From positions 682,001 to 746,000 of the forward strand of contig NW_027191459.1 in assembly GCF_011745625.1 (NCBI RefSeq): a DNA stretch of 64,000 nucleotides, given 5' to 3'. Below the pieces are notes generated by a model, which was not told where the DNA came from, made no database searches, and saw only the letters and a list, made by a program, of their open reading frames with translations. This document shows positions 51,345-51,875 of the stretch, one piece after another; position 1 is the stretch's first letter; each line of letters begins with the position of its first letter. The stretch comes from Cladosporium halotolerans (Eukaryota). Position numbers and translations under genes: made by a program.

Positions 51345-51875
51345 ATGCAGATCGTGAAAGTACTGGTAATCGCGTTACTTTCAATCTCCCGGACGGCTGC
51401 ACGCCCCGTGGGCCAACCTGGCCAGAACGATGTTTTCATTCAAGCCGCTGGCCCTGCGCTAGACTCGAGAGACCAGCAATTCCAGCCTGTGTACTCGCCG
51501 CTGAAGACTGTCTCGGCCCGCTCGGATGAGAATGAAGATCCTAGTAAAAACCTTCGCGAAAGAACATTCGATCCGGTGTCGCCGCCTCCAAAGGTGCTTC
51601 CACCTCCAGGACCTCAAGTGAAGGAACGAGGATTCGACCCGGTGTCGTCACCCCCAAAGGTCCTTCCGCCTCACGGACCTATACTCGAAGAGCGTAACTT
51701 CTAGCCAATGTCGCCGCCACCGAGTGTTTTGCCGCCCCCTTCGGACGGTGCTCGCAAGCGGTCGTTCGACCTGATCTCTCCTCCTCCGAAGGTTGCGCAT
51801 CCGCAGTATGATGGGGCATCGAAGCTACGTGATCGCAGGGATGGTTTTGTGAAGATGATCAGACGGCAAGCATGA
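51345..51875 (+). CDS. Secreted repeat-peptide precursor (Kex2-processed repeat protein-like), interrupted by in-frame TAG at 51702-51704
   Basis: Signal peptide MQIVKVLVIALLSISRTAA, then four 22-aa repeats plus one degenerate copy, each preceded by (L/V/A)xxR. The repeats continue in the same frame past the TAG to TGA 51873-51875. Confidence 0.75.
51558..51821 (+). repeat. Coding tandem repeat, 66-bp period x4
   Basis: Units start at 51558, 51624, 51690 and 51756 (ER-TFDPVSPPPKV, ER-GFDPVSSPPKV, ER-NF*PMSPPPSV, KR-SFDLISPPPKV). Confidence 0.9.

Follow-up and report, generated by a model that had tools for sequence, protein, structure and literature searches.

What does a short fungal gene made of a hydrophobic start and a string of proline-rich units encode, and where does such a gene come from? 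An earlier note on the 64,000-nucleotide stretch of Cladosporium halotolerans DNA analysed here (the window) read the gene as a secreted precursor that releases several related peptides. Comparison with relatives now suggests a particular history. We consider it somewhat probable (about 0.55) that the pro-domain of a laccase turned into an independent peptide-precursor gene, which is now decaying in the window strain.

Structure of the repeat gene

The frame runs from an ATG at 51345 to a TGA at 51873-51875 (176 codons) and contains the following features.

51345..51875, plus strand: repeat gene, read from homologues and synteny as a signal peptide plus the pro-region of a lost laccase, interrupted at codon 120
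51345..51401, plus strand: predicted signal peptide, codons 1-19 (hydropathy; aligns with the starts of relatives and their A/S-P-I/V cut region)
51471..51521, plus strand: unit 0 (degenerate), after LDSR
51564..51614, plus strand: unit 1, after LRER (in X2 and X3, P3 of this site is altered)
51630..51680, plus strand: unit 2, after VKER
51696..51746, plus strand: unit 3, after LEER, with a stop inside and two further core changes
51702..51704, plus strand: premature TAG, codon 120, in unit 3 (read through in the five closest relatives)
51762..51812, plus strand: unit 4, beyond the stop, after ARKR
51813..51875, plus strand: partial further unit GAS..R.DGFVK, then a short new tail and the TGA (likeness to P0008-P0010 and P0040)

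The hydrophobic start seen in the earlier note was borne out: residues 3-14 are hydrophobic, with a Kyte-Doolittle 9-mer peak of 3.31 at residues 6-14, and the signal peptide would be cut after T-A-A. Another ATG, at 51306, is in frame, but the starts of the relatives align to the Met at 51345. The units have the form F-x-x-[VIM]-[SY]-[PS]-P-[PL]-[KS], and there are five of them in the read-through frame. The Phe codons of units 1-4 lie at 51567, 51633, 51699 and 51765, which is the exact 66-bp period reported before, and the degenerate unit 0 sits 87 bp before this series. All six linkers listed in the note (LDSR, LRER, VKER, LEER, ARKR and LRDRR) are likewise present. The motif is not a chance occurrence, since all five matches of a six-frame scan of the 64-kb window fall in the repeat frame. 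Compared pairwise, the units are alike at 31-48 of 66 bases and are old copies; Tandem Repeats Finder at score 40 does not report them. Elsewhere in the window, a 75-bp tandem repeat (2.9 copies, 46035-46252) lies inside a DUF2457 gene.

Pfam found no match in the repeat protein, so the gene in the window carries no copper-oxidase domain. A search of its own genome (27.9 Mb, 691 contigs) detected no paralogue: two of the five matches were to the repeat gene itself and the other three had E values of 0.095 or worse. The repeat motif was found in none of 12 other laccase loci from this genome.

Premature stop codon

Owing to the in-frame TAG at 51702-51704, the product encoded in the window stops at 119 aa and comprises units 0, 1 and 2 as well as two unit-3 residues. 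Codon 120 is read through in the five closest relatives (P0003-P0007, 69-89% identical), which end where the window frame ends. Four runs were compared, of which three cover the whole stretch in one contig, and the same letters were found at the stop in all three runs with contigs spanning it (X1, X2 and X3, from three studies). Run X1 is identical to the window and may be its own source. X2 and X3, from the two other studies, keep the stop despite differing from the window at 10 of 3,601 bases, which rules out an assembly error at this site. The single X2/X3 difference within the repeat gene alters residue 71 (the LRER site), whereas 7 of the 8 differences in the neighbouring WD40 gene are silent. 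An intron excising the stop is unlikely as judged by eye, the nearest GT..AG being 11 bases and the relatives being continuous here. In run X7, both neighbours are covered by spliced contigs and 51048-52030 by no contig; such contigs show presence, not absence.

The release of four to five peptides, as the earlier note had proposed, is precluded by this true stop. The allele in the window can yield at most units 0-2, that is, two full peptides and one degenerate one, and it is probably decaying. The only dibasic linkers, ARKR and LRDRR, both lie behind the stop.

Repeats fused to a laccase in relatives

The read-through protein found 13 relatives among 334 candidates. Searching cluster representatives gave 11 matches, two of them due to chance (P0027 and P0033), and the search of 'longer' proteins gave two matches among 7,999 candidates scored. 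The fused pro-region found eight proteins among 3,363 candidates, one of which is Q7P36_008331 of Cladosporium allicinum. A scan of metagenome contigs yielded 10 loci, and in nine of them a signal, repeats, a linker and a laccase are encoded in a single gene. L027 was discarded as a family locus, being a chance motif match (L027:3-815) in an unrelated high-GC (0.67) record.

The linker after the fused repeats begins W-T-S-G-F-I-G-N. Pfam places Cu-oxidase_3 downstream of the repeats in P0028 and P0034, and the best solved relatives of the enzyme part are multicopper oxidases and laccases. Four copper-binding His motifs and the I-D-S-G-M end were found in all six loci examined (L020-L022 and L024-L026), L025 and L026 being frameshifted between copper motifs. 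Oxidase sequence is visible in 14 of the 20 laccase-linked rows; the other six show the linker only, and their shortness may stem from the search length window or from contig ends. The F-x-x-V/I-S-P-P-P-K repeats are therefore, by prediction, the N-terminal pro-region of a secreted laccase in the relatives. Because they form this pro-region at the same locus, the earlier notion of a secreted repeat precursor holds for the Arg-bounded units and the conserved core described below, and not for a simply free-standing peptide system.

The fused pro-regions bear a second repeated motif, F-S-M-S-G, usually twice (residues 70-74 and 99-103 of P0037); the clade of the window is without it. A structure model of P0037 was uninformative (mean pLDDT 37.8 from 23 sequences). 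The Atlas gave no usable match for the fused pro-region, and its best score was 0.85 (P0004). Other laccase frames of the window's genome also have long N-terminal stretches, the first copper motif lying 328 (L007), 573 (L009) and 282 (L012) residues into the open frame. The stretches of L007 and L009 consist of 12-17% Pro, and that of L012 resembles what we take to be a starch-binding module.

The locus without its laccase

The surroundings of the repeat gene are as follows.

48024..49414, minus strand: ATP_bind_1 GTPase gene, second upstream neighbour, several exons (high end approximate)
49765..50877, plus strand: WD40 protein gene, upstream neighbour (Pfam WD40)
51876..52100, no strand: short gap in place of the relatives' laccase coding DNA of about 2 kb (tblastn, blastn)
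52101..53210, minus strand: DUF1295 gene, downstream neighbour, two exons (low end approximate)

The WD40 neighbour, presumably BUB3-like, shares 72-74% identity with the gene found upstream at the laccase loci L020, L021, L022 and L025. Six of the nine fused loci (L020-L023, L025 and L026) have both the GTPase and the WD40 gene upstream, and the other three have too little upstream DNA. The DUF1295 gene follows the fused laccase in L022, L025 and L026; L023 stops within the laccase, and a different gene lies downstream in L020 and L021. L022/L023 and L025/L026 are near-duplicate pairs. The gene in place of DUF1295 (L020:6122-9538 and L021:6846-10259, minus strand) is one that we take to be MutS-like, and its presence there means that the fused-laccase locus is a rearrangement edge in the L020/L021 lineage. 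In the window, the DUF1295 gene has an intron of 54 bases (52293-52346), confirmed by a spliced X7 contig. Further on lies a many-exon gene on the minus strand (53694-55226), which presumably encodes an SR-protein kinase and has two exon pieces without a Pfam match.

In the window, 468 bp separate the WD40 stop from the start codon of the repeat gene, versus 483 bp in L022 and L025, and the interval to DUF1295 is 1,224 bp versus 3,190-3,303 bp in L025 and L022. Neither tblastn nor blastn detected a laccase remnant in the window. At least 12 other multicopper oxidase loci were found in the same genome, and since its best match to the L020 laccase is only 50-52% identical, well under the 72-74% of the neighbour, the orthologue of the fused laccase is absent from the window's assembly. 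The tail at 51813..51875 is a probable deletion edge. Its G-A-S..R.D-G-F-V-K matches the start of a unit which is whole in P0008-P0010 and in the fused P0040, and the cut that removed the laccase would therefore fall inside the repeats. The stand-alone state is established from DNA for the gene in the window; P0003-P0010 and P0014 are known as proteins, and the placement of P0004 at this locus rests on a contig size of 13,168 common to a WD40 relative.

Open repeats next to a broken laccase are frequent at this locus. L018 has a stop directly behind intact repeats (L018:1087-1089), and L025 and L026 carry two one-base deletions in the laccase, at about 11345 and 11630, with open repeats. In P0041 a copper His is lost (HWYG in place of HWHG), and P0011, P0012 and P0013 also end or shift frame early.

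Direction of the change

In a tree of 30 pro-region rows, 10 stand-alone proteins together with the fused P0040 were separated from 19 laccase-linked rows with a branch support of 99/99. The stand-alone or fused label needs two changes in nearly all bootstrap trees, and one change suffices in 0-1% of them. After the removal of eight near-duplicates (22 rows), a single split between stand-alone and fused forms was not rejected by the AU test (p=0.09), and the midpoint root of this tree, which like the others has no outgroup, fell among the stand-alones. No branch was supported in the tree of catalytic domains.

The unrejected split and the midpoint root would suit the reverse history, in which an ancient stand-alone precursor with repeats acquired a laccase that became fused behind it. 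This course of events seems very improbable to us in view of the scarcity of bootstrap trees with one change, the end of the window gene inside a unit that is whole in fused P0040, the existence of laccase-dead intermediates and the lack of a separate signal peptide in the fused laccase. Loss of the laccase from a fused ancestor is favoured because the cut lies inside a unit and because laccase-dead alleles keep intact repeats. The direction is argued rather than proven, since the AU test leaves one split unrejected and the trees have no outgroup.

Arginine sites and processing

In 19 of 20 laccase-linked proteins, RR or KR lies no more than 10 residues ahead of the linker; the 20th carries L-F-G-R instead. 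This junction would fit a Kex2-removed pro-domain of the type described in PMC8528282. The fused relatives have a KR, RR or LxxR site before the mature domain, and the gene in the window is without a mature domain. Glu is tolerated at P2 of Kex2 sites, where aliphatic residues occur at P4 (PMC8528282), and other fungal repeat proteins are cleaved after a single Arg (PMC9769878).

Among the 45 stand-alone units (10 proteins), 8 follow KR or RR, 31 aliphatic-x-x-R, 3 another Arg and 3 none; for the 67 laccase-linked units (20 proteins) the respective numbers are 9, 18, 12 and 28. Kex2-compatible Arg sites, including aliphatic-x-x-R, precede 39 of 45 stand-alone versus 27 of 67 laccase-linked units. 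The Kex2-type linkers of the earlier note thus stand insofar as Arg bounds the units, and they do not in that KR or RR precedes just 8/45 and 9/67 of them. An Arg at most six residues upstream was found for 28 of 28 units in the clade of the window (1000 shuffles: mean 15.3, maximum 24), for 42 of 45 stand-alone units (shuffle mean 22.8, maximum 34) and for 39 of 67 laccase-linked units (mean 28.7, maximum 42, so inside the range), counts in which the rows are kin and not independent. Arg at position -2 occurs in 23 of 28 window-clade units versus 3.3 in shuffles. In the laccase-linked proteins just fixed positions stand out, e.g. Arg at -2 in 20/67 (shuffle mean 5.8). Arg thus precedes every unit in the window's clade, and 28 of the 67 fused units have no Arg within six residues.

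A Ser-Pro-Pro-Pro-Lys-like stretch resembles the plant HypSys, extensin and CEP peptides. From such a resemblance the earlier note had drawn the idea of host-signal mimicry, which remains unsupported; no homology to HypSys, extensin or CEP was found. The gene might nevertheless be a working stand-alone precursor that mimics plant proline-rich signals, its 119-aa product still releasing units 0-2. The signal-like start and the two full Arg-bounded units before the stop would allow this, as would the single-Arg cleavage of other fungal repeat proteins (PMC9769878) and the inclusion of Glu among the tolerated P2 residues (PMC8528282). Fungal mimics of plant RALF peptides exist, and HypSys peptides are given as about 18 residues long, similar to the units here (PMC11756074). 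Nevertheless, two of the four core changes in the window precede the stop, the likeness to extensin, HypSys and CEP is a putative one, and the origin of the motif inside a laccase gene needs no host, which together make plant mimicry improbable.

Selection on the repeat core

In the fused genes, where the repeat region is moderately constrained, dN/dS was 0.20-0.25 for this region and 0.16-0.26 for the core in three mid-distance pairs, and 0.02-0.05 for the catalytic part. Close fused pairs were noisy (core dN/dS 0.04 and 0.82), the core of L021/L024 reaching 0.82 versus 0.44 in the rest of the pro-region. In fused genes the nine-residue core appears hardly more constrained than the remaining pro-region.

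A different pattern was obtained among the stand-alone proteins with a common cut-off end, all compared with P0004 and all kin. The seven core positions were identical in 35/35 cases versus 107/122 elsewhere in P0003 (p=0.024), 28/28 versus 96/107 in P0005 (p=0.12, not significant), 32/35 versus 82/122 in P0006 (p=0.005) and 31/35 versus 82/122 in P0007 (p=0.018), where the unit pattern itself requires F/Y and most prolines. The same comparison with the allele of the window gave 31/35 versus 108/121 (p=1.0). Since the core exceeds its flanks among the stand-alones but not in the comparison with the window, it was constrained after the laccase loss and appears to be no longer so in the window allele. 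Between the window's own units, core pN is 0.16 and pS 0.58. A change of length has kept the frame, P0005 being without exactly 22 residues. Open frames alone are weak evidence, because a neutral frame stayed open in 41% of simulation runs at 11% divergence and still in 13% at 26%.

The repeats may also have done no more than aid folding or secretion of the laccase, in which case every stand-alone copy would be a functionless remnant, more or less far decayed. Several observations agree with this: the stop is real in three studies, the lone X2/X3 difference within the gene alters a residue in contrast to the mostly silent ones in WD40 (one site only), other laccases of the genome also have long N-terminal stretches, and the locus is broken in several relatives. 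Pro-domains are, moreover, often intramolecular chaperones (PMC8528282). We still consider such debris unlikely, for a clade with a common cut-off end shows a conserved core despite flanks that have diverged by a third, the length change in P0005 keeps the frame, and Arg spacing is tighter in the window's clade than in the fused forms.

The preferred reading, a laccase pro-domain turned into a peptide-precursor gene, would start from an ancestor in a Cladosporium-like lineage which had a signal peptide, about 100-175 residues of pro-region with 2-5 F-x-x-[VI]-S-P-P-P-K units, an RR site, a linker and, at the end, a three-domain multicopper oxidase. A Kex2-type protease in the Golgi would take off the pro-region at RR, and single-Arg sites would allow its fragmentation. 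In the lineage of the window, a deletion of about 2 kb beginning inside the repeats would have taken the laccase, whose absence is observed. Sequence patterns suggest that the leftover gene was retained, 66-bp units being added, Arg sites becoming regular and the core staying under purifying selection. Because of this retention after the loss, the released linear peptides of 17-22 residues would have a job that is independent of the attached enzyme. They could perhaps act, extracellularly or along the secretory path, as a short binding motif with an aromatic anchor, a proline helix and a Lys. The partner might conceivably be fungal (e.g. the melanised wall or one of the other laccases of the genome) and not a plant receptor. 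The window allele would later have gained its stop and lost the constraint on the core. Secretion, Kex2 cutting, peptide release and an enzyme-independent function are all predictions from sequence.

Relation to known systems

KEPs (PMC6339444, PMC7329392) are similar in having a signal peptide (predicted here), tandem units of at least eight residues with basic residues between them and, like the stand-alone form here, no enzyme domain. They differ in that most units here follow a single Arg (xER) and not KR, RR, KK or RK, and in that the gene here derives from the pro-region of an enzyme. According to the rule of Umemura (PMC7329392), each repeat lies between KR, KK, RK or RR. Only one of the five window units follows a dibasic site; as to the number of repeats (at least three tandem repeats of at least eight residues), there are five units in the read-through frame and three, including the degenerate one, before the stop. 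This rule would not call the repeat gene, because most units follow a single Arg. The name 'Cladosporium' does not occur in three supplement files of that survey (PMC7329392). The motif was not found in the KEP survey supplements searched (PMC7329392, PMC6339444), which are mainly tables of accessions, species and expression; other files may list it.

Kex2-processed pro-domains (K2PP; PMC8528282) and ascomycete prepro-laccases (PMC4323517) share a low-complexity N-terminal region and an RR or LxxR site before the mature protein. The pro-region here differs from those described in consisting of conserved peptide repeats that survive as a separate gene. Burpitide pathways (PMC11253845) resemble the present case in that a single chain holds both repeated cores and a copper enzyme, beside a form with a separate precursor. 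They have a BURP domain in place of the multicopper oxidase found here, where no Tyr or Trp is conserved, and their split form keeps the enzyme nearby instead of losing it. Assignment to burpitides was rejected, the enzyme being a Cu-oxidase by Pfam and the core having no conserved Tyr or Trp.

Dikaritins of the ustiloxin type are also made from secreted repeat precursors in ascomycetes. The earlier note had seen no UstYa/DUF3328 oxidase nearby, and this was confirmed: none occurs in 33 frames of the window or on contig C671. A dikaritin was rejected, as there is no UstYa gene on the contig and no conserved Tyr in the core. Four UstYa matches on contigs C46, C196 and C276 of the same genome may mark unrelated dikaritin loci. 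An alpha-pheromone precursor was rejected as well, with no MF_alpha Pfam match and no XA/XP dipeptides after KR; the MF_alpha cluster in the Atlas scored just 0.79. A cytochrome P450 gene (5478-7138), a fungal rhodopsin-domain gene (14023-15397) and a family-2 peroxidase gene (23549-24109) lie in the window and show no sign there of forming a cluster with the repeat gene.

Lys occupies position 9 in 109 of 112 units. Tyr is found in unit 0 of the window's clade, in 2/45 first positions and in 1/67 laccase-linked cores, and neither Tyr nor Trp is conserved in the core. Tyr and Trp are the residues that laccases and BURP cyclases would oxidise, and the coupling of Lys to quinones belongs to laccase-quinone chemistry. 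The laccase might thus modify or cross-link its own repeats (e.g. Lys to quinones or melanin), another laccase serving the stand-alone forms. The conserved Lys, the further multicopper oxidase loci of the genome (at least 12) and the layout of SkrBURP, with multi-core repeats ahead of a copper enzyme in one chain (PMC11253845), are in line with such a fused peptide-oxidase. It nevertheless appears improbable, given the core without conserved Tyr or Trp, its conservation after the enzyme was gone and the lack of tailoring genes nearby. A broader version, a Cladosporium two-in-one secreted precursor in which a F-x-x-V-S-P-P-P-K string is joined to a laccase acting with or on the peptides, and in which laccase loss frees the string as a gene of its own, is speculative and rather unlikely. 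If true, this would amount to a fused peptide-oxidase system in a fungus, and the birth of a repeat-peptide gene from an enzyme pro-domain would be seen in it.

Significance

In the open-licence literature, outside which subscription papers largely fall, no account of this repeat family or of a repeat-peptide laccase pro-region was found. Whether Q7P36_008331 is produced might be seen from the proteome tables of a preprint (bioRxiv 10.1101/2023.09.25.559271). Fungal repeat-peptide precursors known by prediction number in the thousands; on their origin, the survey in PMC7329392 offers no more than a hypothesis. For study, the allele in the window is the least useful of the copies. On the preferred reading, the locus as a whole would display step by step how such a gene might arise: the repeats are first joined to an enzyme, the enzyme is then dead, the repeats next stand by themselves and have tightened cut sites, and a copy is finally decayed. 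This suggests that precursors with single-Arg sites escape surveys in which dibasic sites are required, and that the pro-regions of some laccases may themselves be products.
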